A DNA stretch of 40,561 nucleotides from a virus (lineage: Duplodnaviria; Heunggongvirae; Uroviricota; Caudoviricetes): the IMG/VR virus record IMGVR_UViG_2734482585_000012; one strand, written 5' to 3'. This document shows, piece after piece, positions 1 through 40,561 of this stretch; the first letter of the stretch is position 1, and every line of letters starts with the position of its first letter. The notes under the pieces are model-generated. The model saw only the letters and a list, made by a program, of their open reading frames with translations. It made no database searches and had not been told where the DNA came from. Both the position numbers and the translations under genes were made by a program.

Positions 1-66
1 CTGCGTGGACTTCAGGTTGTCCTTCGCTTCGCGCGGGGTATGCCCCTTACTGCTGCCTTTACCCAT
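1..66 (-). CDS. J: Tail tip / host-specificity protein J, first 22 codons only (gene continues beyond window start)
   Basis: Reverse complement of 1..66 translates to MGKGSSKGHTPREAKDNLKSTQ, which I recognise as the lambda J N-terminus; SD-like GGAGCGTGAGGA immediately upstream on minus strand. Confidence 0.8.
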   Translation of the reverse strand, partial: MGKGSSKGHTPREAKDNLKSTQ

Positions 67-87
67 TCCTCACGCTCCATAAACGAC

Positions 88-108
88 AAAACCGCCCGCA
101 GGCGGTTT
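88..108 (-). terminator. Hairpin (ACCGCC/GGCGGT stem) followed by U-run on minus-strand transcript, between I and J
   Basis: Seen directly: aaaccgcccgcaggcggttt; minus-strand reading gives stem-loop then TTTTGTCGTTT. Confidence 0.3.
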
Positions 109-126
109 CTCATAAAACATTTTGCA

Positions 127-651
127 TCAGCGACCAATCACCACAACCTGACCACCATCCCCTTCGTCTGCCGTGCTGATCTCCTGAGAAACCACACGTG
201 ACCCCACGCGCATTTCCCCGTACAGAACAGGCAGAACATTACCCTGGGCAACCATGTTATCCAGTGACGAGAAATACGTGTTCTGTTTGCCGTTATCTGT
301 ACTGGCTGCCGTGGGCGTCCTGGCTTTCGGTGCCAGCATCTGCGCCACACCACCCAGGATCATACTGGCCCCTGCTGCATACATACCCGATACAGCCGCG
401 GCCCCCAGCCAGCCCACAGGGTTCCACCATGCCACCGCAATCAGCGCCGCACCCAGCACCGCCTGAAACACACCGCCACTTTTGGCACCCGCCAGACGCG
501 GAACGATGTGGATCACGGCACCATTTGCCAGCGGTTCATTAAGACGGGCAGATAATTCATTTTCGCCTGCATCACGCCCGGCAATGCGCACCTGATACCA
601 GCCGTCGCTCAGTTTCTGACGAAATGCCGGGAGCTGTGTGGCCAGTGCCCG
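127..651 (-). CDS. I: Tail assembly protein I (5' part lost in N-run)
   Basis: ORF 127..945 C-terminal 170 aa (…GENELSARLNEPLANGAVIHIVP…GEMRVGSRVVSQEISTADEGDGG) recognised as lambda gpI family; gene order J-I-K-L-M-H as in lambda. Confidence 0.75.
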   Translation of the reverse strand, partial: RALATQLPAFRQKLSDGWYQVRIAGRDAGENELSARLNEPLANGAVIHIVPRLAGAKSGGVFQAVLGAALIAVAWWNPVGWLGAAAVSGMYAAGASMILGGVAQMLAPKARTPTAASTDNGKQNTYFSSLDNMVAQGNVLPVLYGEMRVGSRVVSQEISTADEGDGGQVVVIGR

Positions 652-914
652 NNNNNNNNNNNNNNNNNNNNNNNNNNNNNNNNNNNNNNNNNNNNNNNNN
701 NNNNNNNNNNNNNNNNNNNNNNNNNNNNNNNNNNNNNNNNNNNNNNNNNNNNNNNNNNNNNNNNNNNNNNNNNNNNNNNNNNNNNNNNNNNNNNNNNNNN
801 NNNNNNNNNNNNNNNNNNNNNNNNNNNNNNNNNNNNNNNNNNNNNNNNNNNNNNNNNNNNNNNNNNNNNNNNNNNNNNNNNNNNNNNNNNNNNNNNNNNN
901 NNNNNNNNNNNNNN
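652..914. other. Assembly gap (263 N)
   Basis: Run of n characters in the sequence. Confidence 1.
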
Positions 915-1345
915 TCATCCTCACGATGAAAATCCGGCATCTCAATCCCCGCCAGATGGTAAGCGTCCCGGAACAGCGTGTAACAGTCCGTCACCCCGTG
1001 CTCAAAGCGCCGCCCGGTGAGATGCGGCACACAGCGGAACTTGTGAATCGCCCCGCGGCAGACCAGCCACCACGACAAATCACTCTGCACCTGCAGCCGC
1101 CGGTCGGCCTCACTCAGCCAGGGCAGACCACCGGGGTGGCTGTGGACCAGCGCCACAATCTCACCCTGCATCTCTGCCTGCAGCCAGTCCTCCGGAGCCA
1201 TCCGGAAATACTCCTCCGGCTCACCGGAAATATTCACGCAGGGAAAATATCTTTCCCCCTCCGGTGTTCTCACCACGAAGCCGCACGACTCCGCTGGCGC
1301 ACATCGCCGGGCGTGCGCCAGAATCGCTGATTCTGTCTGTGTCAT
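915..1345 (-). CDS. K: Tail tip assembly protein K (MPN/JAB plus NlpC/P60-like), 3' end lost in N-run
   Basis: N-terminal 143 aa MTQTESAILAHARRCAPAESCGFVVR…HSHPGG… recognised as lambda gpK family; position between L and I. Confidence 0.8.
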
Positions 1346-1350
1346 GGGAT

Positions 1351-2049
1351 TTACTGCGAAAGTTTGTTAATGGAAAGGAAGCCGCCAAAGTTGCCGACGT
1401 TATTGCGGAACTTACAACCGCTCAGGCATTTGCTGCATTTATCCTTCGTGATATCGGACGTTGGCTGGTCATATTCATCCGCGACAGCCGGACCGTGATA
1501 ACCGCACTCATCACCGCGATAGGTCCAGGTGCAGGTATTAGCAAGCATGATGCGCCCCGGAAAAACAGCGCCGTCCGTTTCCGTCGGCGTGGACAGTACA
1601 AAGGAGGCACTGACCGCGCTCAGTTCGCTGCACTGCTCAATACGCCAGCGGCTGATCACCTCCTGCTCCGGATCGGCGTCACTGTTTCCGTTGACGAAGT
1701 TCACCGCATCCAGAAAACGGGCGTAAACCTTACGCCTGACCACCGTTCCGCCGACCAGACTCTGCAGGTCTTCCGCCATCCCGGTGACCATGCCGTGCAG
1801 ATTAGAGACTTTCAGCGTTGGCCTTGCACTGGCACCTTTGCCGTTCATCTCAAATCCACTCCCCTGAATGGGATAGGCCTGATACTGCCGACTCTGCCAG
1901 GTGACAGACTCTCCTTTCTCGTTCTGCTCATTGCAGAAAAAGTAGCGATCCCCGCCTACCTCGGTCAGGTCGATTTCCCAGAGCACCACGCTGGCCGACT
2001 GCTCCGCACGAATGCATTCATTCAGCGTTTCCTGTTGTATGTCCTGCAT
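1351..2049 (-). CDS. L: Minor tail protein L
   Basis: 232 aa, same length as lambda gpL; Cys-rich C-terminus (CGYHGP…CSKCLSGC); position between M and K. Confidence 0.8.
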   Translation of the reverse strand: MQDIQQETLNECIRAEQSASVVLWEIDLTEVGGDRYFFCNEQNEKGESVTWQSRQYQAYPIQGSGFEMNGKGASARPTLKVSNLHGMVTGMAEDLQSLVGGTVVRRKVYARFLDAVNFVNGNSDADPEQEVISRWRIEQCSELSAVSASFVLSTPTETDGAVFPGRIMLANTCTWTYRGDECGYHGPAVADEYDQPTSDITKDKCSKCLSGCKFRNNVGNFGGFLSINKLSQ

Positions 2050-2387
2050 CAGATCACCACTTCGTCAAACTGACACGAAAAATCGGTATAGGTGATATGT
2101 TCTGTCGCTGACCACGTTCGACACACCACTCTGATTTTTCTGTTAATACCCGGCGGGCGCCAAAAAAAAGATTTATAGCCTTCATGCCGGGCTAAAAATT
2201 TTTCAAATGAATCACGTTCATTCGCCTCAACTTTGAAATCACAGGTGAAAACGCGCAGAGAATGATTAAGTCCATTTGGACTTCGTTGCTCATAACCATC
2301 ACCAAATCTTACAGTTTTTATCGATGGTTTATTTTCTGTTTTCATTCCATCCTCTGGTAACCAGTGAAATTCTTCCGTATTAGCCAC
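2049..2387 (-). CDS. M: Minor tail protein M
   Basis: 112 aa with …[16 protein letters not shown]…[16 protein letters not shown]… resembling lambda gpM; overlaps tape measure stop. Confidence 0.8.
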
Positions 2388-5300
2388 TTAACATTCCCCC
2401 ATCACGTCGCATATTTAACAGATTGCCCTGCACCCGCTGATCAACCATCCCCATAAGTGCTTTTATTGCCTGAGGGCCAATCTCTCCATTCTGGCCGTCA
2501 TTTTGAATAGTGATTTGGTATACAGGGGCATAGGTAATATCTCCGCCTCCATTACCACTTTTACTATTAATAGCTCTGACACCAAGAGAACCATCGGAAG
2601 TTCGTGTTAATGGCATAATGGCTTCCGGTCCAGCCTCACCAAAAACACCAGCCCCTTTTGCAAAAGCAAAAAATTGCGGGGAATCATAAATACCGTTCGA
2701 ATACGTGCTCAATGACGGAGACTCATAAACACCGCCCTTTGCATTCGGAATAAATTTACTAATAGCACTCCCGATAGTTCCTAAAATCCCCCCAGAAGAA
2801 CTGTTACTAATGCTGTCGAAAATCCCAGTAATTGAAGCCTTTAATGCTATTCGACTAAGATCCGAAATCACGGAAGTAGCGAAAGAACGAAAATTTGCCT
2901 TGCCTGTCGTGACAAAATCACCCAGCGCATCGGTCATCCCATCAAACATCTGAGTCGTGGTTGATTTTATCTGCTCACTGATATCCTTAGTGTCATCCAG
3001 CCAGTTATTGAATCCCTGGGAGGCACCACTAACCCAGTCTCCTGCCTGAATATCGAGCTGCTCGTTTTTCTGTCTGACAATTTCTTTTTCCCGTTCCAGA
3101 GCATCATTCAGAGCCTGCATTTTCTCTTGAAAAACATGATCTGACATTCCACGGGATTTATCTGCATAGTCACGTTCAAGTTGCAGACGCTGATTGTTAT
3201 ATCCATGTTCAATCCGCAGTAATTCCTGCTGGCGTTGCTGATTTTTATCGCCAACCCCATAACCAGCAATCTGAATATCATACCCCTGCTGACGATTATC
3301 AATCGAAGCCTGCAATGAATCACGCCATGCTGTTATTTCGGCGGATTCCTTGATTAGCCTGTTATTTTTTTCAATCGCAACATTTTTCTCCATCAACGTG
3401 GTTATTTCTTCCCGGTGTAAGAGAAGCGATTTCTGATCCTGGGTTAATTTCGATGATGGTCGTGACTCTAGGTCGGCAATCCGCTGACGCCACTTAACCA
3501 GTTCCTGTTCAGAGGAACTTAATTTAACGGTCAACTCAGCTTGTGAACTTAGTAACGCATTCTGTTGATTCAGATGATCAATCATTCGTTGGGCTGCATC
3601 ATCAGAATAACCTTTCGCCTTTGGTTGCTTTGGATCTTTATAACGCTCATTTATTTGAGCGATAAGATTATTATATTCTTCCTTTGAATACTGATTCTTT
3701 AGCTTTTCCAGTTTTGCAAGTTCACTAGCTCTCTGCTGCTCCCGGGTCTGATATTGTTTTGAAAAGGCATCTGCTCTCTGTCTGAGTTCAATTCCTTCCT
3801 GTTGTCGCTTGTTGTAATCGTTTATTGATGAATTTAGTACGTCCTGAGCAATTTTTTCTGCTTGAAGTACGCCCAATTGCTGCTTTAATCGTGCCAGCCT
3901 TTTATTTTGAGCTCCGCCATCTCCAATGCCACCTAACCCGAAAACTCCGGGTCGGGTATTTTTTTCTATTTCATCAATTTGACGGAGAACATCTGAGATT
4001 TTTTGATCAAGGGAGGCCTCACGGCCAATATCCAGCATGGAATCCCATGCCCATTTTGCGGAGTCTGCGACAGCTTTCCATGCAGTCTCAAGATAACCAA
4101 GATTTTCTTTAATCTGGTTGGTGCGCTGGATCATTGAGGATGAGTATTCTTCTGTCGCAATGCGGGCGGCCTCCTGCTGGTTCCCTTCATCCTGTAGCGC
4201 CTTAATCTGGTTATAAGTCGCAAGTGTCAGAAAATGGTACTGATCATTAAGTTTTGATATGGCACTGACAGGATCCTTTGCAATTTCATTGAAGTCATTA
4301 ACCAGTTGTTCGGTTGATATTCCTGTTACTTCGCTCGTTTTTACTATCGCTGTCGTCACTTGCTCCAGCGAACTGCTCGCTACCTTTCCCGAACGCACAA
4401 GCTGATTTAATACTGCCGCCGCAGCACCAGTTGTCGAATCAGCCGCATTCCCGGCACGTTGAGCTATATCGCCCAATTGCCCGCTGGTTGTCCCCAACTG
4501 ATTTCCGGTAAGAATAAGAGATTTATTAAATTCGTCCTGCTCCTGAGAGCCTTTATAGTAAGCCAGTCCTAAGACCCCAACGGCTGCTGCGGCCAGGGTA
4601 AAAGGATTAATTAATCCCAGCACATAAGAACCTACACCTTTGATCGCCGGGCCAATCCCACCGAACATATCTTTTAGCTGGCCGCCCTGCTGCATTAACA
4701 CCATAAATGGCGACTGACCAGTGGACAACCCAACAACAATATCCGTCATTTGTACAGGCAACATGCGCATAGCAAAAGCCGTTTGTTTTGCCGACATTCC
4801 GGTTTTGCTTAATTGTGATTGAGTAACCTCAAGCTCACTCCGCATAGCACGAAGTTTTCCAGAAAGCTCCTCATACATTTCAGGAGAAAGCATCCCCTTA
4901 GCTTTTGCTTCATTGAGCTGTTTCTGTTGTTCTACCAGACGATTAAAAGCAGTTCCGACAGGATCAAGTTGAGCAATCAGACGTTGCAAAGCAACAACCT
5001 GTTCATCATGCGCTTTTGCTGCTTCTCGCTCTGCCTGAGCCTCTCCGGTAAGCTCTCGCCGTGTTTCCTGTATTTTTCGGCTATAATTCTCAAACTGAGA
5101 ACCATTTATTTTCCCGGATGCAAACGCAGCATTAAGTTCATCATGCTGTTGTTCAAGATTTCTTAGCGCCGCAGCCAGAGGGTCGATCTTGTCCAGCATT
5201 CTTTGAAAGGCCTGAGCCTGCGCTTCCTGCTGGGCGGCAGCAAGTTTTCCGGCCTTCTCGGCTTCTCTCTGCGCTTGCGCAACCCCGCTCAATTCCTCTG

Positions 5301-5613
5301 TGGTTTCATTAAGTTTACGGACAAGAAATTCATATTCTTCTTTATCAATAAGCCCTTTATCGAAAAATTTCTTTAATTCAGAATAGCGTCGACCGACAGT
5401 ATCAATTGCGGCACCAACTGGATCAATAGCTGCTTTTAATTTTGCGAGCGCGTTCTTCTCATCTTCTGTTGCCTTAGTCACTTTCCCTGCGCTATTTGCA
5501 GCAGTTTCCCCAGCCTGCGTCATTTTGACTAATGAGGAGGTCAGATTGTCAGCATTATTTTTCGCTCCAGTGCTATCAATAATTATTGCGAGACGCGAGG
5601 TTTGCTCTGCCAT
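2380..5613 (-). CDS. H: Tail tape measure protein
   Basis: 1077-aa ORF, long coiled-coil-like Ala/Gln/Glu-rich N-half, hydrophobic central segment, position between chaperone and M; SD AGGAG upstream. Confidence 0.9.
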
Positions 5614-5633
5614 TTATTAAAACTCCTGACAAC

Positions 5634-5660
5634 AAAAAACCCACCGCGAAGTGGGTTTCA
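5634..5660 (-). terminator. Terminator-like hairpin just upstream of tape measure start (minus-strand sense)
   Basis: aaaaaacccaccgcgaagtgggttt: 6-bp stem ACCCAC/GTGGGT, on minus strand followed by TTTTTTGTTGTC. Confidence 0.3.
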
Positions 5661-5778
5661 GGCGACATAATAGTAGATATAGCGATTACGAGGCCACGCA
5701 ATGCTTTTCTCCAGGAGCATCATCGATTTAATTAAAGACACCATCACATCTCTGTAACAGAGTGTACGTAATTAACAA

Positions 5779-6099
5779 CTACACACACTGCTCCTGAAAA
5801 TACTGGTCATCCAGTGCAAAGATCACTGCTTCAAATTCATCGCGCTCAATCAATACCGGATGAGTGGCTAAATATTCATTTATCTCTGTCAGAGATAAAG
5901 GCAAAGGCACCCCAGCCATTCCAGCATAACGTCGGGCACGGGATATTACCGAATAGGCGTACAACAACTCCTTAAGCACCGGGTCTATTTCTGGTTCCGG
6001 TATCGGTGGCAACCTGAGTTTTTCTCGCTTCCATCTTGCCTTTTCCCCCCTTTCTCCCCCGAACTCCGATAACCACCGCTGGGCAGCTATGGCTTTTTT
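5779..6099 (-). CDS. T: Tail assembly chaperone -1 frameshift extension (gpT-like part of a G-T fusion)
   Basis: The -1 frame is open from the slippery site through ORF 5779..6012 (…KKAIAAQRWLSEFGGERGEKARWKREKLRLPPIPEPEIDP…); frames checked codon by codon. Confidence 0.65.
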   Translation of the reverse strand, partial: KKAIAAQRWLSEFGGERGEKARWKREKLRLPPIPEPEIDPVLKELLYAYSVISRARRYAGMAGVPLPLSLTEINEYLATHPVLIERDEFEAVIFALDDQYFQEQCV

Positions 6100-6548
6100 A
6101 TCGTATCCTGCTTCTGCTGCTCTTTACCCTGGGCGATGCTGGCTGCTTCTGCAAGGATCTGCCAGTACAACTCTGGATTCTGCTTAAGCAGCGCGATCCC
6201 TCGTTCTGCCGTATATTCCAGTGCAACCTCAACACCATTAACCAGTTCACCAACCCCTTTCCAGTCTTTCAGCAGATAACGAGCGGCATTATCAATGAGT
6301 AAATCATCAACAGAATCCACCTCGGAAACCTTTGAAATATCAAACTCCTTCGTTCCGACGTGCAAACTGGCATCCATTTTCTCAATGTGGCGACGGATTA
6401 ATGCATTACGGGAGCGATACTGATCGTTATCGCTGCTTGCCACCAACAGTTTTAACCCGTCTACAGGTTTTAAGTCCTTCATTGGCGTAAACCAGCGTTC
6501 TCCACCAATGATAATTTTCTGATTAAGAATAAACATCCATAACCTCAT
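6087..6548 (-). CDS. G: Tail assembly chaperone (gpG-like)
   Basis: 153-aa ORF directly upstream of tape measure, ending at the slippery site; acidic small protein typical of tail chaperones. Confidence 0.7.
   Translation of the reverse strand: MRLWMFILNQKIIIGGERWFTPMKDLKPVDGLKLLVASSDNDQYRSRNALIRRHIEKMDASLHVGTKEFDISKVSEVDSVDDLLIDNAARYLLKDWKGVGELVNGVEVALEYTAERGIALLKQNPELYWQILAEAASIAQGKEQQKQDTIKKP
6093..6099 (-). promoter_or_regulatory. Programmed -1 ribosomal frameshift slippery heptamer A_AAA_AAG
   Basis: mRNA reads ATA AAA AAG CCA TAG in the chaperone frame; the zero-frame stop is 2 codons after the heptamer, as in lambda G/G-T and dnaX. Confidence 0.65.
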
Positions 6549-6596
6549 TCAATGCGTCCCCCTGTAGGGCAGTACCACAGGAGGAATAACGGAAAA

Positions 6597-7559
6597 TCAA
6601 CTAATCGCCTCAGCACTGGCTTTTGCGATCACGGCAGCCGGGGAATTTTTTTTTCTGGTTATCGTAGGTGCTTCATCTGCTGCGGTAATGCTCAATTGAA
6701 CCTGGATAATGTCGCTATTACCCCCATCAGGCCATTCACCTGACACCTGAACCTTCGGGAAACTGAAAGTGTATGCCCCCTCTCCATTCGAAAGCGTGAA
6801 GCTGAACGGAACTGTTTCTCCAGTCAGTGTTTTACTCCAGATTTCCCACGCGGCTTTAGACCATGAAAGCGTCACCGTACCGGACGGTGTAAAAGTAGTC
6901 GGAATATTTGCTCCTGCATAAGGCGAGCCAGTCCCGATACAACGCTGTGTCTGGAGTTTGTTATCGAACTGAATATCAAAACTGTCGATACAAAAACCGT
7001 TACCTCCGGCAACACCATTCAGGCTTACTGCTGAAACCTCCTTAAACGAATAACGTAGCTTTCCTGCACTATCCACAGGTTCGCCTTTGATAAAATTCGT
7101 ATCATCGGCCTTTGATTCCCAGTCCAGTCCGGCAAAGGTTACGGTCGCTGTAATATCGCCGTCGTTAGGGATCTGCATTTTCCATGAGCCAACCTGCGCT
7201 CCTCTGACGACAGAGGCAATTCCGACATCGGACGCATAGGTCGCCAGAGAAAATGTTATTCGCTCATTCCCCATTGTCAGAGAATCGCCTGACCATTCCG
7301 CGCCGAAACAGGATGCAAGAAAATCATCATGTTGACCCCAGCGAAATTTGGTACCAACATCACCGCCGACATCCACAGTGCCAGGCGTCGCCCCCTGAGC
7401 CATCCGGGAGCCACCAATCTCATTATTTTCGCCTTTATTCTGGGTGGGTTTTACTCCCCAGCTTGTGCGTTTTAATAAACTCCAGTCACCACTTGCTGGC
7501 GTAGTGCCTGCAACCGTCTCCCGGATAAATGCCGAGATAACCTTTGCACCTGAACTCAC
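6597..7559 (-). CDS. Major tail (tube) protein with C-terminal Ig-like domain
   Basis: 320 aa, Gly/Thr/Ser-rich beta-type composition; C-terminal segment (…FPKVQVSGEWPDGGNSDIIQVQLSITAADEAPTI…) looks like a Big_2-type decoration domain; position upstream of chaperone. Confidence 0.75.
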   Translation of the reverse strand: MSSGAKVISAFIRETVAGTTPASGDWSLLKRTSWGVKPTQNKGENNEIGGSRMAQGATPGTVDVGGDVGTKFRWGQHDDFLASCFGAEWSGDSLTMGNERITFSLATYASDVGIASVVRGAQVGSWKMQIPNDGDITATVTFAGLDWESKADDTNFIKGEPVDSAGKLRYSFKEVSAVSLNGVAGGNGFCIDSFDIQFDNKLQTQRCIGTGSPYAGANIPTTFTPSGTVTLSWSKAAWEIWSKTLTGETVPFSFTLSNGEGAYTFSFPKVQVSGEWPDGGNSDIIQVQLSITAADEAPTITRKKNSPAAVIAKASAEAIS

Positions 7560-7585
7560 AGGAGCCTCCTATGTCATTAATTGCG

Positions 7586-7978
7586 CTAGAGCGCGCGATA
7601 TGGAATTTGAAGATTAAGCTGGAACCAGCCATTCTTTTCGCCAACGGCTATTGAGGAAACAGCCTGGTAACTGAGACGATCGTCATCCTGAAACTCAAAC
7701 AGTTCCCGCAATTTATCGGCTGTCTCAGTAATGAGTTTTGAACCAGAACCTGCGGGGACAAATAACTGAATAATGATTATCCCCGTGCGATAAACAACCG
7801 GCCCCGCGCCAATTTCATTAACTCCAGCCTGCCCGGGAATATTACTTAACCGCGCCCAGATTAACTTACCGGAAGGATCGAACGTTGGCCCGTTCGGATA
7901 CAATACGTCTTTTCCATCAATAATCGTCTGTGCCGTCATTCTGGAAATAACCGTATTTCTGATTTCAGTAAACTTCAT
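7586..7978 (-). CDS. Tail terminator protein (gpU-like)
   Basis: 130 aa; N-terminus MKFTEIRNTVISRM resembles lambda gpU MKHTELRAAVLDAL; position immediately before the tail tube gene. Confidence 0.55.
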   Translation of the reverse strand: MKFTEIRNTVISRMTAQTIIDGKDVLYPNGPTFDPSGKLIWARLSNIPGQAGVNEIGAGPVVYRTGIIIIQLFVPAGSGSKLITETADKLRELFEFQDDDRLSYQAVSSIAVGEKNGWFQLNLQIPYRAL

Positions 7979-8355
7979 TTGTAAGCCTGTAAAACACCAT
8001 GAAAAGCGTTGGCATACACGCCAGTTGGCGCTTGTTGTGAATGACCGTTTTCAAGAGCCTCTGCATAAGGAAGGTTATTCTGGATATAAATAACCCCGTA
8101 ATTTGCAGCTTTCGAAATAACCCCGATCCCACGCTGAACAGCAATCGTACCGTTCGGATCCACGTTATCAGATATACCAAAATCGGGATGCTGTAACGAC
8201 ACCAGGTTGTTATTTCTGAAACGTCCGGTATCAACCGGAGCAGCAATATCAATAGCAGTAAGAATCTGCATAGCGATGTAGCGAATCTTCAGCCCTACAT
8301 CTTCCTCAATCATCCCGGCAAATATTGACGGTTCTATATCCCATGCCTTTGCCAT
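7975..8355 (-). CDS. Head-tail joining / tail completion protein (HK97 gp10-like)
   Basis: 126 aa with …VDTGRFRNN…LENGHS… pattern recalled from the HK97 gp10 family; position. Confidence 0.5.
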   Translation of the reverse strand: MAKAWDIEPSIFAGMIEEDVGLKIRYIAMQILTAIDIAAPVDTGRFRNNNLVSLQHPDFGISDNVDPNGTIAVQRGIGVISKAANYGVIYIQNNLPYAEALENGHSQQAPTGVYANAFHGVLQAYK

Positions 8356-8739
8356 TTACGCTCTCCTTAACTGGATAGAGTAAACTGATGCGGAAGGATC
8401 TACACTTGCTGTAATTACCTCGTATCGTTGTAACTGCCTTGATACAGGATCATAAATCTCAATAATATGGTCGACAGCTGGTTTATCCGTAACCTCGCAT
8501 ACCAGAGCGGTTAATTTAAGGTCACCATGCAAAATATTAATCCCATCAATTCTGCCCAGCTTATAACGTGTCAACACGCCTCGCCCGGTATAGATTGCGG
8601 TTGATTCGCCGCCAGTTTCCGTCACAGGATCCCAGTGCCGGTGCGTAACGTAAGAACCAGAAAAATCACTCACGGCGTCCGCTAAATCCTCATCAAAAGC
8701 AGCGGCAACCTCTGACTGAATCTCTTCACGAAGCCCCAT
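8356..8739 (-). CDS. Head-tail adaptor / head closure protein
   Basis: 127-aa ORF in the head-tail joining block; no specific motif recognised. Confidence 0.45.
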   Translation of the reverse strand: MGLREEIQSEVAAAFDEDLADAVSDFSGSYVTHRHWDPVTETGGESTAIYTGRGVLTRYKLGRIDGINILHGDLKLTALVCEVTDKPAVDHIIEIYDPVSRQLQRYEVITASVDPSASVYSIQLRRA

Positions 8740-9134: not shown

Positions 9135-9137
9135 GTG

Positions 9138-9314: not shown

Positions 9315-9332
9315 ATGCCCCCCATTAAAAAT

Positions 9333-9350
9333 GGGGCCGAAGCCCCGTTT
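9333..9350 (-). terminator. GGGGC-TTCG-GCCCC hairpin plus U-run, 10 nt downstream of the capsid stop
   Basis: Seen directly: ggggccgaagcccc; minus strand reads GGGGCTTCGGCCCC then ATTTTTAA. Confidence 0.4.
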
Positions 9351-9356
9351 GAATGT

Positions 9357-30766: not shown

Positions 30767-30772
30767 GGTCAG

Positions 30773-31630: not shown

Positions 31631-31642
31631 GGAAACTTTTGC

Positions 31643-32065: not shown

Positions 32066-32316
32066 GAATCAACTCCCATCAGCTTTTTCGTAGTAGTTTT
32101 ATTTCTGCCAATAGTTAAAATTACATCAGCAGAAAATAATCCGTTTGATGCATGAGCGATTTTTTCAGCGTAATTTGTTTCGCCGGTATATTCTGTGCGA
32201 GGCAATTTTCCGTTATCCATCCATTTGTAGATTGCTCTTTGGCTGACACCACAAACGTCGGCCACAACAGAAACGCGAACAGTTTTGATTACATCTTCAA
32301 GTGTTTTCTGGTTCAT
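32062..32316 (-). CDS. ydaS: Cro-like HTH protein YdaS
   Basis: 84 aa from MNQKTLEDVIK… with SD GAGGGTG; HTH segment VADVCGVSQRAIYKWM; divergent from racR. The longer ORF-track start would overlap racR. Confidence 0.65.
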   Translation of the reverse strand: MNQKTLEDVIKTVRVSVVADVCGVSQRAIYKWMDNGKLPRTEYTGETNYAEKIAHASNGLFSADVILTIGRNKTTTKKLMGVDS

Positions 32317-32395
32317 ATCACCCTCACAATGTGAACTTTGAGTACATGCTATAACAGAACTGACAGTACATTCAAGAGTGAATATCATTGAACTT
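32317..32395. promoter_or_regulatory. Divergent racR / ydaS promoter-operator region
   Basis: About 80-bp intergenic between divergent repressor-like genes with repeated TGAACT / GTACAT elements; inferred by analogy with lambdoid immunity regions. Confidence 0.35.
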
Positions 32396-32815
32396 ATGGT
32401 TCATGAAGATAAAGCGCGTAAAGAGTTCGCCAGTAGGCTTGCGCTAGCCTGTGAAAACGCTGGTTATGAACAACATGGAAGGCAGGCAGAAATTGCCCGT
32501 CGAATGAAATTAACACCAAAAGCGGTTAGCAAATGGTTTAATGGCGAAACAATTCCTCGCCGAGAGAAATTAAGGGAATTAGCAACACTCATTGGAACAA
32601 CACCAACCTATCTTTTGGGAGAGGATACAGAAGAAAGTGGACAGGTACGTTTCTATCAGGAGTTAAATCCAAGACAAAAAATCATCATTGACCTTCTGGA
32701 CGAGCTCCCTGACAGTGAGACAGATGAACTTTTAAAAACTCTTGAGGAGAAAAAACAGAAGTACAATGCAATTTACGAAGAGCTAGCACGAAAGAAAAAA
32801 CAAAAAGCCTCTTAA
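32396..32815 (+). CDS. racR: Prophage repressor RacR (XRE-family HTH)
   Basis: ORF 32378..32815 (GTG) or ATG at 32396; HTH GRQAEIARRMKLTPKAVSKWFNGE; position divergent from ydaS/ydaT. Confidence 0.75.
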   Translation: MVHEDKARKEFASRLALACENAGYEQHGRQAEIARRMKLTPKAVSKWFNGETIPRREKLRELATLIGTTPTYLLGEDTEESGQVRFYQELNPRQKIIIDLLDELPDSETDELLKTLEEKKQKYNAIYEELARKKKQKAS

Positions 32816-33105
32816 ACCAGCATAAATCCGGTAGCGTCCCCCTCCGGGTTTGTGCTTCACTTTATCCCATCTCATTTTTTTACACACAAAATGTACTTAT
32901 AGTACTTTACATCAATGAACACAAAGTACATTATATACCTACCAACCCACCCCGCCCCACAGAACGCAGGGCAATACTTCGAGTTACCAGGCAGTGGTCA
33001 GGGGTTAAGTAGCCAGCCCGAGGCGTATGAACATGACGGCAGGGTTCAGATTTTGCAGTGCAGCAGGTTTCAGTTCCGCCACCCGGCGTTAAGGGGAGAG
33101 ATAAG

Positions 33106-33240
33106 ATGGTGCATTACGAAGTAGTTCAGTATTTGATGGATTGTTGCGGTATCACTTACAACCAGGCTGTGCAGGCTTTACGCAGCAACGACTGGGATCT
33201 CTGGCAGGCAGAAGTCGCTATACACAGCAACAAGATGTGA
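33106..33240 (+). CDS. ydaG: YdaG-like small protein (44 aa)
   Basis: SD AAGGGGAG before ATG; MVHYEVVQYLMDCCGITYNQAVQALRSNDWDLWQAEVAIHSNKM. Confidence 0.5.
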   Translation: MVHYEVVQYLMDCCGITYNQAVQALRSNDWDLWQAEVAIHSNKM

Positions 33241-33250
33241 GATTCGCAAA

Positions 33251-33406
33251 ATGCAAAAAATCGACCTCGGCAACAACGAATCCCTGGTGTGCGGCGTGTT
33301 CCCCAACCAGGATGGAACGTTCACTGCCATGACGTATACCAAAAGCAAAACATTTAAAACCGAAACTGGTGCGCGCCGATGGTTGGAGAAGCACACAGTA
33401 AGCTAA
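33251..33406 (+). CDS. ydaF: YdaF-like small protein (51 aa)
   Basis: ATG at 33251; MQKIDLGNNESLVCGVFPNQDGTFTAMTYTKSKTFKTETGARRWLEKHTVS; weak SD. Confidence 0.4.
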   Translation: MQKIDLGNNESLVCGVFPNQDGTFTAMTYTKSKTFKTETGARRWLEKHTVS

Positions 33407-33891
33407 CGATTAAAACGTCTACTCCTGCTGTTCCAGAATAACTTCATAAAATGGGAGTATTTTTCGGTGACGAGATAATAAGAACAGTTTGCGCTATCAC
33501 TCTGATGTTGAATGATGCCCTTCCGTTCTAATTTTTTCATAACCGGGTTACGGCAAGGAGAAGTGATAATAAGATTTCCTGTTTTAAGGAAATCTTTAAA
33601 TACAGCGATTTCTTTCTCAGATAAACGAAGCAATACTCGTTGCTCTGGTAGTAATGAATAATGCTTTTGAATATGTGCTCGCAATCTTGAGAAGGAAATG
33701 GCGACCACGAAAGAAAAGGCAAAAACGATAATCTGAAAGAGCCAAGGTATTTCAGTATAAGCATTGAATGCGACAGTAAACTCTTTCGGTATCAGCCAGA
33801 GAGTGAGACCAAAAATGATAATCGTATACATAAGTATTTCGAGTGGCTCGTTAGCAAAAAGTTTCAACAATGGAGTAAATACATCCAACAT
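33403..33891 (-). CDS. sieB: Superinfection exclusion protein B
   Basis: 162 aa from MLDVFTPLLKLF… with two TM segments; same length and position as Rac SieB. Confidence 0.8.
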   Translation of the reverse strand: MLDVFTPLLKLFANEPLEILMYTIIIFGLTLWLIPKEFTVAFNAYTEIPWLFQIIVFAFSFVVAISFSRLRAHIQKHYSLLPEQRVLLRLSEKEIAVFKDFLKTGNLIITSPCRNPVMKKLERKGIIQHQSDSANCSYYLVTEKYSHFMKLFWNSRSRRFNR

Positions 33892-34332
33892 ATCAATAAC
33901 TCTCAACTGTAAGGGTATTGAAATGTTAACACAAGCTCTCGCTGTAGGGGTATAGCCGAGACCACCGAAGCCCGGAGGTGGTGAAATAAAACCGGGCACA
34001 ACACGAAGGCGCATTTCCGATATCCATAAAGAGTCGGTCTTGTCTGTTAAATTTAAATGGTGGGAGTGCGCCTCCGGTTGTAAATAACGACATTGCTGTG
34101 TGTAGTCCTGGCGGCATCAGTTTTTTTCTTGAAGTTCGGCTGATGTCCGCCCTTTTTAAAGTGAATTTTGTGATGCGGTGAATGCGGCTAAGCGCACGTG
34201 GCACAGTTAAAAGTCATGTTAGTCCTTATTGGTTTGGGTGGGAAAGCCGACTGTAATTGTTAACTGGTTGCAGTCACCTGGAGGCACCAGGCACCGCATC
34301 AACAAAGTTCATTTGTAAAAATGGAGATAATT

Positions 34333-34554
34333 ATGATTGCACATCACTTCGGAACTGATGAAATACCACGTCAGTGTGTGACTCCTGGCGATTATGTTCT
34401 TCATGAAGGCCGGACATATATTGCCTCGGCAAACAATATTAAAAAGCGAAAACTATATATTCGTAACCTGACCACAAAAACATGCATTACTGACCGCATG
34501 ATTAAAGTCTTCCTCGGTCGTGATGGTTTACCTGTAAAGGCGGAGTCATGGTGA
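34333..34554 (+). CDS. kilR: Cell-division inhibitor KilR
   Basis: 73 aa [46 protein letters not shown]… recognised as Rac KilR. Confidence 0.85.
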
Positions 34555-34724
34555 TGACTAAGAAAATAAAATGTGCTTACCACCTTTGCAAAAAAGACGT
34601 TGAAGAAAGCAAAGCTATTGAAAGAATGCTTCACTTCATGCACGGGATTTTATCAAAAGACGAACCGAGAAAATATTGCAGTGAAGCTTGTGCCGAAAAA
34701 GACCAGATGGCACATGAACTTTAA
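34554..34724 (+). CDS. ydaE: YdaE-like small Cys-rich (zinc-binding) protein
   Basis: 56 aa [14 protein letters not shown]…KYCSEACAEKDQMAHEL; start overlaps kilR stop. Confidence 0.6.
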   Translation: MTKKIKCAYHLCKKDVEESKAIERMLHFMHGILSKDEPRKYCSEACAEKDQMAHEL

Positions 34725-34798
34725 TTAATTGACTATTCGAAACTGAATTTATGCCAGAAATGGCAGGTATTCGCTCAACCTTAATTAAGGAGAAAAAC

Positions 34799-35074
34799 AT
34801 GATTACCAATTATGAAGCCACTGTTGTAACTACCGATGACATTGTTCACGAGGTGAATCTGGAAGGAAAGCGCATTGGCTACGTAATTAAAACAGAAAAT
34901 AAAGAAACCCCATTCACTGTGGTTGATATCGATGGTCCATCAGGCAACGTAAAAACACTTGATGAAGGTGTCAAAAAAATGTGCCTGGTGCATATCGGAA
35001 AGAATCTGCCCGCAGAAAAAAAAGCCGAATTTCTGGCAACTCTAATTGCAATGAAATTAAAAGGTGAAATCTGA
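34799..35074 (+). CDS. racC: RacC protein
   Basis: 91 aa from MITNYEATVV… with SD AAGGAG; position before recE. Confidence 0.65.
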   Translation: MITNYEATVVTTDDIVHEVNLEGKRIGYVIKTENKETPFTVVDIDGPSGNVKTLDEGVKKMCLVHIGKNLPAEKKAEFLATLIAMKLKGEI

Positions 35075-35175
35075 AAGAAATAGCCTGCGTATGGCGCAGG
35101 CTATGAACAGTGTGTATCCGGCAAGATCATTCACTGAACAAAACGAATTTTAATCTGAGTTGAGGTTAAAAAACA

Positions 35176-37776
35176 ATGAGCACAAAACCACTCTTCCTGT
35201 TACGGAAAGCGAAAAAATCATCCGGTGAACCTGACGTCGTCCTGTGGGCAAGCAACGATTTTGAATCGACCTGTGCCACTCTGGACTACCTGATCGTTAA
35301 GTCAGGTAAAAAACTGAGCAGCTATTTTAAAGCTGTTGCCACGAATTTTCCTGTCGTTAATGACCTGCCCGCTGAAGGTGAGATCGATTTTACCTGGAGT
35401 GAACGCTATCAACTCAGCAAAGACTCCATGACATGGGAACTAAAACCGGGAGCAGCACCAGACAACGCTCACTATCAAGGCAATACCAACGTCAACGGCG
35501 AAGACATGACTGAGATTGAGGAGAATATGCTACTCCCAATTTCTGGCCAGGAACTGCCCATTCGTTGGCTTGCTCAACACGGCAGCGAAAAACCGGTAAC
35601 GCACGTTTCACGCGACGGACTCCAGGCATTACACATTGCTCGGGCTGAAGAACTACCGGCTGTTACTGCCCTGGCTGTTTCCCACAAAACCAGCCTGCTC
35701 GACCCGCTGGAAATTCGCGAACTCCACAAACTGGTTCGTGACACTGACAAAGTTTTCCCTAATCCTGGTAATTCAAACCTGGGACTGATAACTGCTTTTT
35801 TCGAAGCATACCTGAACGCTGACTACACCGATCGAGGACTGCTGACAAAAGAGTGGATGAAGGGTAATCGTGTTTCACACATCACTCGCACGGCTTCCGG
35901 TGCTAATGCTGGCGGCGGAAACCTCACCGATCGCGGCGAAGGTTTCGTACACGATCTGACGTCACTGGCGCGGGACGTAGCCACTGGCGTACTGGCCCGT
36001 TCAATGGATCTGGACATCTATAACCTTCATCCGGCACACGCTAAACGCATTGAGGAAATTATCGCTGAAAATAAACCGCCCTTTTCTGTTTTCCGCGACA
36101 AATTCATCACCATGCCTGGCGGGCTGGATTATTCCCGCGCCATCGTGGTTGCGTCCGTAAAAGAAGCACCAATTGGGATCGAGGTCATCCCCGCGCACGT
36201 CACTGAATATCTGAACAAAGTACTGACTGAAACCGATCATGCCAACCCTGATCCGGAAATCGTGGATATTGCCTGCGGTCGCTCCTCTGCCCCGATGCCG
36301 CAGCGAGTAACAGAAGAAGGAAAACAGGATGATGAAGAAAAACCGCAACCATCTGGAACAACGGCAGTTGAACAGGGAGAGGCTGAAACAATGGAACCGG
36401 ACGCAACTGAACATCATCAGGACACGCAGCCGCTGGATGCTCAGTCACAGGTAAATTCTGTTGATGCGAAATATCAGGAACTGCGGGCAGAACTCCATGA
36501 AGCCCGGAAAAACATTCCATCAAAAAATCCTGTCGATGCCGATAAATTGCTTGCTGCATCACGTGGTGAATTTGTTGACGGAATTAGCGACCCGAACGAT
36601 CCGAAATGGGTAAAGGGGATCCAGACTCGCGATTGTGTGTACCAGAACCAGCCAGAAACGGAAAAAACCAGCCCGGATATGAATCAACCTGAGCCAGTAG
36701 TGCAACAGGAACCGGAAATAGCCTGCAATGCCTGCGGCCAGACTGGCGGGGATAACTGCCCTGACTGTGGTGCGGTGATGGGCGACGCAACATACCAGGA
36801 AACATTCGATGAAGAGAGTCAGGTTGAAGCTAAGGAAAATGATCCGGAGGAAATGGAAGGCGCTGAACATCCGCACAATGAGAATGCTGGCAGCGATCCG
36901 CATCGCGATTGCAGTGATGAAACTGGCGAAGTCGCAGATCCCGTAATCGTAGAAGACATAGAGCCAGGTATTTATTACGGAATTTCGAATGAGAATTACC
37001 ACGCGGGTCCCGGTGTCAGTAAGTCTCAGCTCGATGACATTGCTGATACTCCGGCACTGTATTTGTGGCGTAAAAATGCCCCCGTGGACACCACAAAGAC
37101 AAAAACGCTCGATTTAGGAACCGCTTTCCACTGCCGGGTACTTGAGCCGGAAGAATTCAGTAACCGCTTTATCGTAGCACCTGAATTTAACCGCCGGACA
37201 AACTCCGGAAAAGAAGAAGAGAAAGCGTTTCTGAGGGAATGCGCAAGCACAGGAAAAACGGTTATCACTGCCGAAGAAGGCCGGAAAATTGAACTCATGT
37301 ATCAGAGCGTTATGGCTTTGCCGCTGGGGCAATGGCTTGTTGAAAGCGCCGGACACGCTGAATCATCAATTTACTGGGAAGATCCTGAAACAGCAATTTT
37401 GTGTCGGTGCCGTCCGGACAAAATTATCCCTGAATTTCACTGGATCATGGACGTGAAAACTACGGCGGATATTCAACGATTCAAAACCGCTTATTACGAC
37501 TACCGCTATCACGTTCAGGATGCATTCTACAGTGACGGTTATGAAGCACAGTTTGGAGTGCAGCCAACTTTCGTTTTTCTGGTTGCCAGCACAACTATTG
37601 AATGCGGACGTTATCCGGTTGAAATTTTCATGATGGGCGAAGAAGCAAAACTGGCAGGTCAGCTGGAATATCACCGCAATCTGCGAACCCTGGCTGACTG
37701 CCTCAATACCGATGAATGGCCAGCTATTAAGACGTTATCACTGCCCCGCTGGGCTAAGGAATATGCAAATGACTAA
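35176..37776 (+). CDS. recE: Exodeoxyribonuclease VIII (RecE)
   Basis: 866 aa, same length as K-12 RecE; C-terminal nuclease region; immediately precedes recT with overlapping start. Confidence 0.9.
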
Positions 37777-38578
37777 GCAACCACCAATCGCAAAAGCCGA
37801 TCTGCAAAAAACTCAGGGAAACCGTGCACCAGCAGCAATTAAAAATAACGACGTGATTAGTTTTATTAACCAGCCATCAATGAAAGAGCAACTGGCAGCA
37901 GCTCTTCCACGCCATATGACGGCTGAACGTATGATCCGTATCGCCACCACAGAAATTCGTAAAGTTCCGGCGTTAGGAAACTGTGACACTATGAGTTTTG
38001 TCAGTGCAATCGTACAGTGTTCACAGCTCGGACTTGAGCCCGGTAGCGCCCTCGGTCATGCATATTTACTGCCTTTTGGTAATAAAAACGAAAAGAGCGG
38101 TAAAAAAAACGTTCAGCTAATCATTGGCTATCGCGGCATGATTGATCTGGCTCGCCGTTCAGGTCAAATCGCCAGCCTGTCAGCCCGTGTTGTCCGTGAA
38201 GGTGACGAGTTTAATTTCGAATTTGGCCTTGATGAAAAGTTAATACACCGCCCAGGAGAAAACGAAGATGCCCCTGTTACCCACGTCTATGCTGTCGCAA
38301 GACTGAAAGACGGAGGTACTCAGTTTGAAGTTATGACGCGCAAACAGATTGAGCTGGTGCGCAGCCAGAGTAAAGCTGGTAATAACGGGCCGTGGGTAAC
38401 TCACTGGGAAGAAATGGCAAAGAAAACGGCTATTCGTCGCCTGTTCAAATATCTGCCCGTATCAATTGAGATCCAGCGTGCAGTATCAATGGATGAAAAG
38501 GAACCACTGACAATCGATCCTGCAGATTCCTCTGTATTAACCGGGGAATACAGTGTAATCGATAATTCAGAGGAATAA
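37769..38578 (+). CDS. recT: Single-strand annealing recombinase RecT
   Basis: 269 aa from [14 protein letters not shown]…; recognised as RecT; start overlaps recE stop. Confidence 0.9.
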
Positions 38579-38633
38579 TTCAGCCTGGCGGTGTAATGCA
38601 CCGCCAACTTGAAATATTTTTATGAGAAAAATT

Positions 38634-38783
38634 ATGAGATATGACAATGTTAAACCATGTCCATTTTGTGGTTGTCCATCAGTAACGGTGAAAGCCATTT
38701 CAGGATATTACCGAGCGAAGTGTAACGGATGCGAATCCCGAACCGGTTATGGTGGAAGTGAAAAAGAAGCACTCGAACGATGA
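38634..38783 (+). CDS. ralR: Restriction alleviation protein RalR/Lar-like (49-aa ORF ending at TGA)
   Basis: MRYDNVKPCPFCGCPSVTVKAISGYYRAKCNGCESRTGYGGSEKEALER; Cys4 zinc-ribbon; coordinates approximate (my reading of this line conflicts by 1 nt with the ORF track). Confidence 0.5.
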   Translation: MRYDNVKPCPFCGCPSVTVKAISGYYRAKCNGCESRTGYGGSEKEALER

Positions 38784-38820
38784 AATAAACGAACCACTGG
38801 AAATAATAATGGAGGTGTTC

Positions 38821-39009
38821 ATGTATAAAATTACCGCCACTATTGAAAAGGAAGGTGGCACTCCTACTAACTGGACAAGATATTCAAAATCTAAACTAAC
38901 GAAATCAGAATGCGAAAAAATGCTCTCAGGTAAAAAAGAAGCAGGCGTTTCCAGAGAGCAGAAAGTAAAACTGATAAATTTTAATTGCGAGAAACTTCAG
39001 TCCTCGTGA
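38821..39009 (+). CDS. ydaC: YdaC-like small protein
   Basis: 62 aa from MYKITATIEKEGG… with SD GGAGGTG; within ORF 38749..39009. Confidence 0.5.
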   Translation: MYKITATIEKEGGTPTNWTRYSKSKLTKSECEKMLSGKKEAGVSREQKVKLINFNCEKLQSS

Positions 39010-39108
39010 ATTGCATTGTATTCAAATTAAAACTTCATAGCTGATTATTAATAATCAACATCGGGCGTCAATTTAAGTCTAACATTGGCGCCTGCCAGAG
39101 GTGATGCG

Positions 39109-39324
39109 ATGGCACAAGTAATCTTTAATGAAGAGTGGATGGTTGAATACGGCCTGATGCTTCGCACTGGTCTGGGGGCCAGACAAATTGAAGCATACCG
39201 CCAGAACTGTTGGGTGGAAGGCTTCCACTTCAAACGAGTATCTCCTTTAGGGAAGCCAGACAGTAAGCGAGGGATTATCTGGTATAACTATCCAAAGATA
39301 AATCAGTTTATCAAAGACTCATGA
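39109..39324 (+). CDS. xisR: Excisionase (XisR/YdaQ-like)
   Basis: 71 aa from [15 protein letters not shown]… with SD GAGGTG; directly upstream of integrase. Confidence 0.7.
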
Positions 39325-39325
39325 T

Positions 39326-40561
39326 ATGTCTAAATTACCAACAGGTGTCGAGATTCGAGGTAAATACATTCGCATCTGGTTCATGTTTCGAGGAAAACGA
39401 TGTCGGGAAACATTGAAAGGCTGGGAGGTTACTAACAGTAACATTAAAAAAGCCGGGAATTTAAGAGCGTTGATAGTTCATGAAATCAATTCCGGTGAGT
39501 TTGAGTATTTAAGACGTTTTCCCCAGTCCAGCACTGGGGCAAAAATGGTGACAACGAGGGTCATAAAAACGTTCGGGGAGCTTTGTGATATCTGGACAAA
39601 AATTAAAGAAACAGAGTTAACAACAAACACAATGAAGAAAACGAAATCACAATTAAAAACACTCAGGATAATAATTTGTGAGAGTACTCCGATATCGCAT
39701 ATTCGTTATAGCGATATCTTAAACTACCGGAATGAACTGCTGCATGGAGAAACGCTTTACCTGGATAATCCAAGATCCAACAAAAAAGGAAGAACCGTGC
39801 GCACAGTTGATAACTATATCGCCCTGCTCTGTTCGTTGTTACGTTTTGCGTATCAGTCGGGATTTATATCAACCAAACCATTTGAAGGAGTAAAGAAATT
39901 ACAGAGAAACAGAATAAAGCCTGACCCGTTATCTAAAACAGAATTCAATGCATTAATGGAAAGTGAAAAAGGACAGAGCCAGAACTTGTGGAAATTTGCC
40001 GTATACTCCGGGCTTCGTCACGGGGAACTGGCTGCTCTGGCGTGGGAGGATGTGGATTTCGAGAAGGGAGTTGTGAATGTCAGAAGAAACCTGACGATAC
40101 TGGATATGTTCGGTCCCCCAAAAACAAATGCGGGGATCCGGACGGTAACACTACTGCAGCCTGCTCTTGAAGCACTGAAGGAGCAATACAAACTGACCGG
40201 GCATCATCGCAAAAGCGAAATCACTTTTTATCATCGGGAGTACGGCAGAACCGAAAAGCAAAAACTGCATTTTGTTTTCATGCCCAGAGTGTGTAACGGA
40301 AAACAGAAACCTTATTACTCGGTAAGCAGTTTGGGTGCGAGATGGAATGCAGCAGTAAAACGTGCTGGTATTCGCCGCCGTAATCCGTACCATACGCGGC
40401 ATACTTTTGCCTGCTGGCTGTTGACGGCAGGAGCGAACCCGGCGTTTATAGCCAGCCAGATGGGGCATGAAACTGCGCAGATGGTGTATGAAATTTACGG
40501 TATGTGGATTGATGACATGAACGACGAACAGGTAGCCATGTTGAATGCGCGGTTATCGTAG
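39326..40561 (+). CDS. intR: Tyrosine integrase IntR
   Basis: 411 aa; C-terminal catalytic region …RHGELAALAWEDVD…HTRHTFACWLL…; stop at the window end, so att site lies beyond the window. Confidence 0.9.
   Translation: MSKLPTGVEIRGKYIRIWFMFRGKRCRETLKGWEVTNSNIKKAGNLRALIVHEINSGEFEYLRRFPQSSTGAKMVTTRVIKTFGELCDIWTKIKETELTTNTMKKTKSQLKTLRIIICESTPISHIRYSDILNYRNELLHGETLYLDNPRSNKKGRTVRTVDNYIALLCSLLRFAYQSGFISTKPFEGVKKLQRNRIKPDPLSKTEFNALMESEKGQSQNLWKFAVYSGLRHGELAALAWEDVDFEKGVVNVRRNLTILDMFGPPKTNAGIRTVTLLQPALEALKEQYKLTGHHRKSEITFYHREYGRTEKQKLHFVFMPRVCNGKQKPYYSVSSLGARWNAAVKRAGIRRRNPYHTRHTFACWLLTAGANPAFIASQMGHETAQMVYEIYGMWIDDMNDEQVAMLNARLS

Follow-up and report, generated by a model that had tools for sequence, protein, structure and literature searches.

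We conclude, with a probability of about 0.8, that the IMG/VR virus record IMGVR_UViG_2734482585_000012, a stretch of 40,561 bases analysed at its full length and called here the window, represents 40.5 kb of a full-length Rac-family lambdoid temperate siphovirus of about 52.5 kb, integrated at the 5' end of ttcA. The extent of this prophage, of which the window covers about three quarters, was read from the corresponding element of Escherichia coli NCTC10444. The comparison links the textbook 'fossil' Rac of E. coli K-12 to its full-length relatives via three deletions of 9.1, 11.6 and 8.4 kb, which explain the odd K-12 open reading frames (ORFs) ydaW, ynaK, ydaY and ynaA as stumps or fusions. 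A previous, sequence-only reading had described the window as an apparently intact Rac-like prophage, possibly in an inducible, ancestor-like form. The novelty that it implied does not hold, as full-size Rac-like prophages are documented (PMC4632033, PMC5917428, PMC6731689). Little here is new, and the value of the analysis is in clarifying how full-length Rac relates to K-12 Rac.

The window covers most of a larger prophage

In a megablast search of 5,426 complete E. coli genomes, the window proved collinear with positions 2723177-2763809 of NZ_LR134092.1 (E. coli NCTC10444), with 99.9% identity. Over the readable positions, the two sequences differ by 25 substitutions and one intergenic indel of 1 bp. 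The NCTC10444 prophage is the same element as that of the window, with no difference of substance, and it supplies the parts that the window lacks. It spans about 2711375-2763910, many near-identical copies of it exist, and it is bounded by two copies of a 43-bp imperfect attachment (att) repeat, one at the 5' end of ttcA, directly after intR, and the other in a ttcC remnant between uspF and sitA. The window was first taken for a whole prophage, which it is not, as its left edge lies 66 nt into J on the minus strand and its right edge falls exactly on the intR stop codon. Beyond these edges lie the remainder of J, lom, a 3-kb tail fibre gene (stf), tfaR, the iron/manganese transporter operon sitABCD and both att copies. 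In NCTC10444, J, lom, the fibre genes, the holin and the att sites are all present and annotated as intact, and the virulence-associated sitABCD operon sits inside the att-bounded element. The element is annotated in hundreds of RefSeq genomes. Its late half (window 1-20000) is covered to at least 80% in 691 of the genomes searched (about 13%). By the same measure only 47 have the early half, since lambdoid phages are mosaic in their early regions.

The two runs of N pointed out in the sequence-only reading were located at 652-914 (263 N) and 20893-21142 (250 N). The first stands for 333 bp at the I/K junction of the reference and is 70 nt shorter than the true sequence in all relatives. The second covers the start of the endolysin gene and nearly all of a 71-aa holin of the essD type that is seen in the reference. 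Both reference sequences are multi-copy in E. coli genomes, with a median of 2 places per genome in each case and up to 7 for the first and 9 for the second; we infer that the gaps are repeat-induced scaffold gaps or masks. The repeats under both gaps and the short first N run are what one would point to in arguing that two different lambdoid prophages had been joined by scaffolding across prophage-repeated sequence. However, complete genomes such as NCTC10444 show the same order, with 99.9% identity flanking both gaps. As finished genomes match the window in order and identity to either side of each gap, the scaffold is not a chimera, and such an artefact is hardly credible.

The gene order is lambda-like. 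It runs from int-xis through recET-kil, sieB, the repressor and the cro-cII-like genes, an O-like initiator gene with a DnaC-like loader gene, cargo, nin, Q and the late leader, and then through holin, endolysin, Rz/Rz1, trkG, a ParB-like/TAGT gene pair, TerS-TerL, portal, head, connector, tail tube, G/GT, tape measure and M-L-K-I-J, followed past the window in the reference by lom, stf, tfa and sitABCD. Gene integrity was checked by mapping the RefSeq gene models of NCTC10444 onto the window, and functions were assigned by PHROG and Pfam profile scans. Every fully readable coding sequence is open (about 50 ORFs), with no frameshift or stop in any essential gene. All readable proteins are identical to those of the reference, save the tape measure (1 aa) and the DUF1627 protein (2 aa), and what can be seen of I, K and the endolysin is likewise identical and free of stops. 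The scans assign the small and large terminase subunits (TerS and TerL), portal, Mu-F-like head protein, scaffold, capsid, adaptor, head closure, tail completion, tail terminator, tail tube, tape measure, M and L. The set of lysis, terminase, portal, capsid and tail genes that had looked complete is intact as far as it can be read; the holin lies under N, only parts of I, K and the endolysin can be seen, and J and the fibres are outside. In the same way, 'apparently intact' is right for everything readable, and for the masked and outside parts it holds only via NCTC10444.

K-12 Rac is a reduced and mosaic relative

K-12 Rac occupies 1411899-1434958 (23.1 kb) of the MG1655 chromosome. BLASTN alignment of the whole window with MG1655, which the sequence-only reading had called for, gave four collinear blocks and, between the window-type element and K-12, three deletions. 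The first block (4679-6438, 99.9% identity) contains the 3' part of the G chaperone gene and the 5' end of the tape measure gene (ydaY and ynaA in K-12). The second (17996-20426, 99.3%) contains ynaK, trkG and rzoR/rzpR, the third (29548-32071, 98.3%) the 5' part of ydaW together with ydaV, ydaU and ydaT, and the fourth (32940-40561, 98.7%) ydaG through intR. The previous statement that K-12 Rac has no head genes and reduced lysis and tail genes was borne out. Window 6439-17995 (packaging, head and tail tube) and 20427-29547 (S, R, Q, nin and cargo) are missing from K-12, which retains mere fragments of the lysis and tail genes.

The deletions were sized against the full NCTC10444 element. One, of 9,123 bp, begins inside the DUF1627 gene and removes everything up to and including the start of Rz, with Q, holin and endolysin among the losses. 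Another, of 11,557 bp, starts within the ParB-like gene, takes out every packaging, head, connector and tail tube gene, and ends inside G. The last, of 8,368 bp, begins at codon 313 of the tape measure gene, takes out M, L, K, I and J, and ends inside lom. Together they total 29.0 kb, which accounts for the difference in size between 52.5 kb and 23.1 kb. The K-12 proteins at the junctions can be read in this light: YdaW is the first 151 aa of the DUF1627 protein, YnaK the first 86 aa of a 262-aa ParB-like protein (98.8% identity), YdaY the 3' part of G (100% identical over 116 aa), and YnaA the first 312 aa of the tape measure fused to lom. Long microhomology at the junctions was considered and rejected, the two that fall inside the window sharing by eye about 2 nt each. 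These K-12 models also have consequences for annotation, as PGAP appears to transfer them in their truncated form onto intact genes of other strains. In the reference, the RefSeq 'ynaK pseudogene' is an intact 262-aa ParB-like ORF and the 119-aa 'YdaY' is really the 153-aa G chaperone, with no GT product annotated.

Most of the Rac hallmark genes previously listed for the window were found. At the protein level, identity to K-12 is 98.8% for IntR (411 aa), 99.2% for RecE, 98.5% for RecT, 98.6% for KilR, 99.4% for SieB, 99.3% for YdaT and 99.6% for TrkG. At the DNA level, ydaU and ydaV are 98.3% identical, and racC is intact within the 98.7% block. The exceptions are racR and ydaS, for which the immunity region carries an Sp10-type pair instead. 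In the Rac family as the literature uses the term, for lambdoid prophages at ttcA that have the Rac left arm in common, this immunity pair is a variable feature. The best alignment of the window repressor with RacR covers 33 aa (E=0.003) and that of the Cro-like protein with YdaS 18 aa (E=1.0), which is resemblance at the level of the helix-turn-helix (HTH) only, and the 868 bp between ydaT and ydaG (32072-32939) have no DNA homology to K-12 by BLASTN against MG1655. The two prophages have the integrase in common, and the ttcA site is the same in the 99.9% identical reference genome. K-12 Rac differs further in carrying an IS5 in lom, which the window-type reference does not have, and pinR-ynaE at the distal end in place of the sitABCD of the NCTC10444 element; stf is only 84-94% identical between the two.

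K-12 Rac therefore has the window architecture minus three clean deletions, plus IS5 and with swapped immunity and distal cargo. One could go further and regard K-12 Rac as a descendant of exactly the window sequence by deletion only, a view encouraged by the four collinear blocks (98.3-99.9% identity) and by the clean junctions of all three deletions. The non-homologous immunity region, the distal sitABCD and the divergent stf all stand against it. So do two stop codons of the window that are absent from K-12, both within 38634-39009: ralR is cut short by W50* (TGG to TGA), leaving 49 aa versus 64 in K-12, and rcbA by R63* (AGA to TGA). Direct descent is thus very improbable, as the exchanged immunity and cargo already contradict it, and a full-length relative with racR-ydaS would make a better candidate for the ancestor. 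The window is a mosaic relative of K-12 Rac, not its progenitor. 'Ancestor-like' remains a fair description of the late region and the left arm, and not of the immunity module and distal cargo, where the two have different cassettes.

Other full-size Rac-like prophages

Full-size, transferable Rac-like prophages at ttcA are common and already published, so that the window element is of a known kind. Sp10 and CP-933R, of E. coli O157:H7 Sakai and EDL933, have been described as full-size Rac-like prophages at ttcA (PMC4632033; PMC2669165), the site of the window-type element. Sp10 is 99.2% identical to window 31645-40561 (ydaT, cro-like gene, repressor, sieB, kil, recET, xis and int). However, its late region differs, with an annotated prohead protease/portal head module and a lambda-like terminase; it also has tRNA genes, an antirepressor among the lysis genes and other cargo, and does not carry trkG. 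Full-sized Rac-like prophages with LT-II toxin genes, including Rac-SA53, are on record according to the account of Jobling 2016 given in PMC5917428. Escherichia phage Rac-SA53 (KU052037) shares the ttcA attachment and intR with the window, with 83-96% identity in the left arm and in the nin and Q regions, whereas it has a dicA/dicC-type immunity, LT-IIa and pertussis-like toxin cargo and, in a late module unrelated to that of the window, genes for a baseplate and tail fibres. The late region of the window is absent from Sp10 and Rac-SA53, the two sequenced relatives compared, and is the one cognate to the K-12 remnants. A third relative, KingRac, is an active Rac-related prophage of 46.8 kb at ttcA that makes tailed particles, is only weakly inducible by mitomycin and, in the mouse gut, takes the place of K-12 Rac (Frazao et al. 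2019, PMC6731689). It has been proposed to mediate transduction of the adjacent chromosome (PMC12251178). Its marker gene is called 'asd' (PMC6731689) and no gene of the window is annotated asd; we liken KingRac to the window element from its published description.

Immunity and the question of activity

The immunity region (31643-32938, 99.2% identical to that of Sp10 of O157 Sakai) comprises the CII-like YdaT on the minus strand, an 84-aa Cro-like protein (32062-32316, minus strand) and a repressor of 139 aa (32396-32815, plus strand) with an HTH_3 domain at residues 29-73. The Pfam scan gave no S24 peptidase match in the repressor, and 139 aa is too short for such a domain, so that it is not of the LexA-like, self-cleaving type. 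Repeats of the form GAAC-N6-AGTACAT, which by their sequence are putative operators, flank the repressor gene at 32332-32377 and 32891-32938. Two of the three copies lie in the repressor-cro interval; the third has an inverted partner and is found some 100 bp past the end of the repressor gene. A sigma-70-like promoter match at 32360-32388 (plus strand) overlaps one of these sites and faces the repressor, as PRM does, and a second at 32906-32934 (plus strand) overlaps the other site and faces ydaG and int in a pL-like position; the promoter scan of the immunity region returned none facing cro.

The switch would then consist of a short HTH repressor acting at repeated operator-like sites that flank its gene. 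As this repressor has no autocleavage domain, derepression would be independent of the SOS response, and induction would probably occur at low frequency, either spontaneously or through a trigger in trans, in line with what has been reported for Sp10. Indeed, the Sp10 repressor was noted to have no peptidase domain of the kind needed for SOS induction (Asadulghani et al., PMC2669165), and Sp10 excises spontaneously, its circular DNA being detectable without mitomycin C and decreasing after treatment (PMC2669165). The suggestion that the window prophage is inducible is therefore doubtful in the SOS sense, given its HTH_3-only repressor and the behaviour of Sp10, which has the same immunity and is not mitomycin-inducible (PMC2669165). 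As a consequence, a mitomycin C test would under-report activity with such a repressor and may be negative even if the phage works.

What the window prophage would do once derepressed can be proposed from its late genes. Packaging would be by headful, as suggested by a T4-type TerL, a Mu-F-like head protein and a P22-family coat, and lysis would rely on a phage-21-type small holin together with a signal-anchored endolysin. The predicted attP junction, with the int-side arm, the core and the sit-side arm, was found in six IMG/VR contigs, in each case with phage DNA on both sides. One of them, a metagenomic contig of 50,494 bp (IMGVR_UViG_3300039370_000009), also carries the window-type ParB/TAGT/TerS/TerL region at 99.3% identity. 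These junctions fit excised circles, concatemers or headful-permuted genomes, and are supportive rather than decisive. In four of the six contigs, sitABCD sequence itself abuts the attP-type junction. This arrangement suggests from sequence that sitABCD is mobile phage cargo; the literature we searched contained no paper linking sitABCD to Rac-type prophages. If active, the element would be a common E. coli vehicle for trkG and for the virulence-associated sitABCD.

Several observations weigh against a functional full-length phage. The completeness of the source element is extrapolated from a genome 99.9% identical to it. Under the N runs lie the holin and parts of I (8 residues), K (104) and the endolysin (16). 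The PHROG and Pfam scans of the window proteins revealed no N-like antiterminator, and the sequence downstream of the putative pL, considered as a put-like antiterminator RNA, folds no better than its shuffles (z=+1.6). No antirepressor gene was recognised in the annotations and family searches, none of which was dedicated to it. Tandem double lysogens could give the same attP junction. The best-matching 'phage' records had to be rejected as virion proof, as they are in-silico prophages or include host flank. Thus the vB_EcoS-xxxRx records stem from work that located phages within genomes of clinical isolates, and we take them as prophage predictions, not sequenced virions. 'Salmonella phage SPF_0923' (ON032529.1, 35.5 kb), entered as a complete phage genome, starts in Rz, continues through trkG, the whole late region and sitABCD, and extends into the E. 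coli chromosome, where it includes uspF, ompN and the gene for pyruvate-flavodoxin oxidoreductase. Either this is a prophage fragment under the wrong label, or headful packaging in situ has left its footprint here. Finally, the core genes flanking the prophages of NCTC10444 and K-12 are 98.7-99.1% identical and the shared prophage blocks, at 98.3-99.9%, are no more so. Conservation alone is therefore no proof of a recent phage-mediated spread, and sequence identity does not discriminate between vertical inheritance and recent transfer, the core flanks being equally similar.

Taken together, such points could describe a prophage that is structurally complete but functionally cryptic, a domesticated element from which no infectious particles arise. 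Its ORFs would have stayed intact through recent ancestry or through selection on cargo (trkG, sitABCD, recET, kilR and sieB), and the defect would be regulatory, a loss of antitermination or a lesion in the unseen parts. The repressor that has no peptidase domain, the lack of any recognised antirepressor or N-like gene, the nonsense changes in ralR and rcbA, and an identity to K-12 that would allow vertical inheritance all agree with this. Moreover, no particles were seen from a K-12 lysogen of Sp10, which has the same immunity region (PMC2669165). On the other hand, the roughly 50 ORFs are undisrupted, including the 1077-aa tape measure and the frameshift site of the tail chaperone, and the attP junctions come from six independent contigs. 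Among the relatives, marked Sp10 moves with low efficiency into K-12, where it inserts beside Rac (PMC2669165), and KingRac forms particles (PMC6731689). On balance we consider domestication unlikely, though worth keeping in view, and we retain the full-length temperate siphovirus as the better account of the window.

Tail, head and lysis genes

All the late genes lie on the minus strand. The first 66 nt of the window hold the first 22 codons of J, whose translation, MGKGSSKGHTPREAKDNLKSTQ, is the start of gpJ in NCTC10444. Next come the C-terminal 174 aa of the tail assembly protein I (127-651), its N-terminus being under N, and the N-terminal 143 aa of the tail protein K, a C40 peptidase (915-1345), both identical to the reference. 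The minor tail proteins L (1351-2049) and M (2049-2387; phrog_14) are intact and identical to the reference, and the tape measure gene (2380-5613, 1077 aa) is intact. Between the tape measure and tail tube genes, the window has the G/GT arrangement of the lambda type. The tail assembly chaperone G has 153 aa (6090-6548; phrog_313, E=4e-46), and a canonical slippery heptamer, A-AAA-AAG, at 6099-6093 joins it in the -1 frame to T, the frameshift extension of G that frame analysis places in the open frame 6123-5782. The tail tube gene (6597-7559) is named from the RefSeq annotation of the identical reference protein and from phrog_290. The connector genes follow at 7586-9314, with the tail terminator, tail completion, head closure and head-tail adaptor genes and a 58-aa ORF (phrog_179, 169, 161, 493 and 1514).

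The major capsid protein (9357-10496; phrog_283, PF11651) belongs to the P22-coat family; of the named phages in the collection that are not prophages, the lambdoid HK639 comes closest, with 75% aa identity. A scaffold-like protein is encoded at 10595-11359 (phrog_784/206). The genes for the Mu-F-like minor head protein, the portal (DUF4055), TerL (Terminase_6N/6C) and TerS occupy 11464-16345, according to PHROG and Pfam. Between the packaging and lysis genes lies the cargo gene for the potassium transporter TrkG (18387-19844, 99.6% identical to K-12 TrkG). The lysis block itself contains the Rz spanin (19982-20446; phrog_13), the Rz1 lipoprotein embedded in it (20041-20226), and the endolysin, which reads from 20443 to 20892 and then enters the second gap. 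The endolysin has a hydrophobic, signal-anchor-like N-terminus, and its C-terminal 149 aa are visible.

Two tandem paralogues resembling the TolA C-terminus, of 124 and 142 aa, are encoded at 21406-22380 (PF06519), between the late leader and the holin. One of them is flagged as a tolA pseudogene in RefSeq. We considered a single broken tolA gene and rejected it, as the two are complete and each matches phrog_5772 over its full length. In the unannotated stretch of about 1 kb downstream of the Q-like gene, 22491-22677 matches the STnc100 small RNA family (Rfam RF02076, 86.6 bits versus a gathering score of 47) and is probably part of the late-promoter leader transcript. The genes for the Q-like antiterminator (DUF1133), a DUF1364 HNH-like protein and a NinB-like DUF1367 protein are found at 23425-24853 (phrog_753, 131 and 319; PF06576 and PF06530).

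The early region

On the minus strand, 28804-31630 encodes a Ren-like DUF977 protein, the full-length DUF1627 protein, the DnaC-like loader YdaV and the O-like initiator YdaU. Five iteron-like repeats, TTGAACATCTGY, lie inside ydaU at 31187-31487, as expected for an origin. Past the immunity region, ydaG, ydaF, sieB (minus strand), kilR, ydaE, racC, recE and recT (33106-38578) are intact. So is the RalA antitoxin small RNA (38827-39005, minus strand; Rfam RF02694, 225 bits), which with STnc100 makes up the whole yield of the Rfam scan of the window; no tRNA genes were found in the window. The plus strand closes at 39109-40561 with the excisionase XisR (DUF1233) and the tyrosine integrase IntR (Arm-DNA-bind_2 and Phage_integrase).

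A ParB-like/TAGT pair and other cargo

The only lead of some novelty here is a gene pair that sits just upstream of terS in the late operon, on the minus strand. An intact ParB-like protein of 262 aa (17461-18249; full length to phrog_620, PF02195) is followed by a solitary glycosyltransferase of the TAGT family, of the GT-A kind (16536-17486; PF20691, E=4e-34); a 69-aa ORF accompanies the two genes within 16349-18249. Neither a hydroxymethylase nor an alpha- or beta-glucosyltransferase was found in the window, and a PDB sequence search with the TAGT-like protein gave no match. TAGT-like genes at 40-46% identity occur in tailed viruses of Lactobacillus, Nocardia, Vibrio and haloarchaea. In phi jlb1, HHTV-2 (haloarchaeal) and Ld25A, a ParB-like gene is annotated beside the TAGT-like gene, and in two of those viruses the TAGT-like gene lies within about 1 kb of the left end of the genome. 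Solitary TAGT homologues were reported in 288 of 753 phage genomes, with no defined function assigned (2026 paper, PMC13216743). It is tempting to speculate that the pair forms a packaging-linked DNA (or virion) glycosylation system of a new kind in a lambdoid coliphage, of which K-12 ynaK would be a relic, although we hold this to be quite doubtful.

Two adjacent genes on the minus strand, for proteins of 333 aa (26626-27627) and 363 aa (27643-28734), lie between the replication and nin genes. Their only Pfam matches are sub-threshold ones to GNAT and to the HEPN/RES-N-terminal domain, and they could be an uncharacterised accessory or conflict module. A role as a defence system, considered for this pair, the DUF1971 gene, sieB and others, was rejected, PADLOC giving no meaningful match. 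The DUF1971 gene (25667-26005, plus strand; Pfam) is opposite in strand to its neighbours, with about 0.6-0.8 kb around it carrying no annotated gene, and the sole indel relative to NCTC10444 lies just upstream of it, at 25650.

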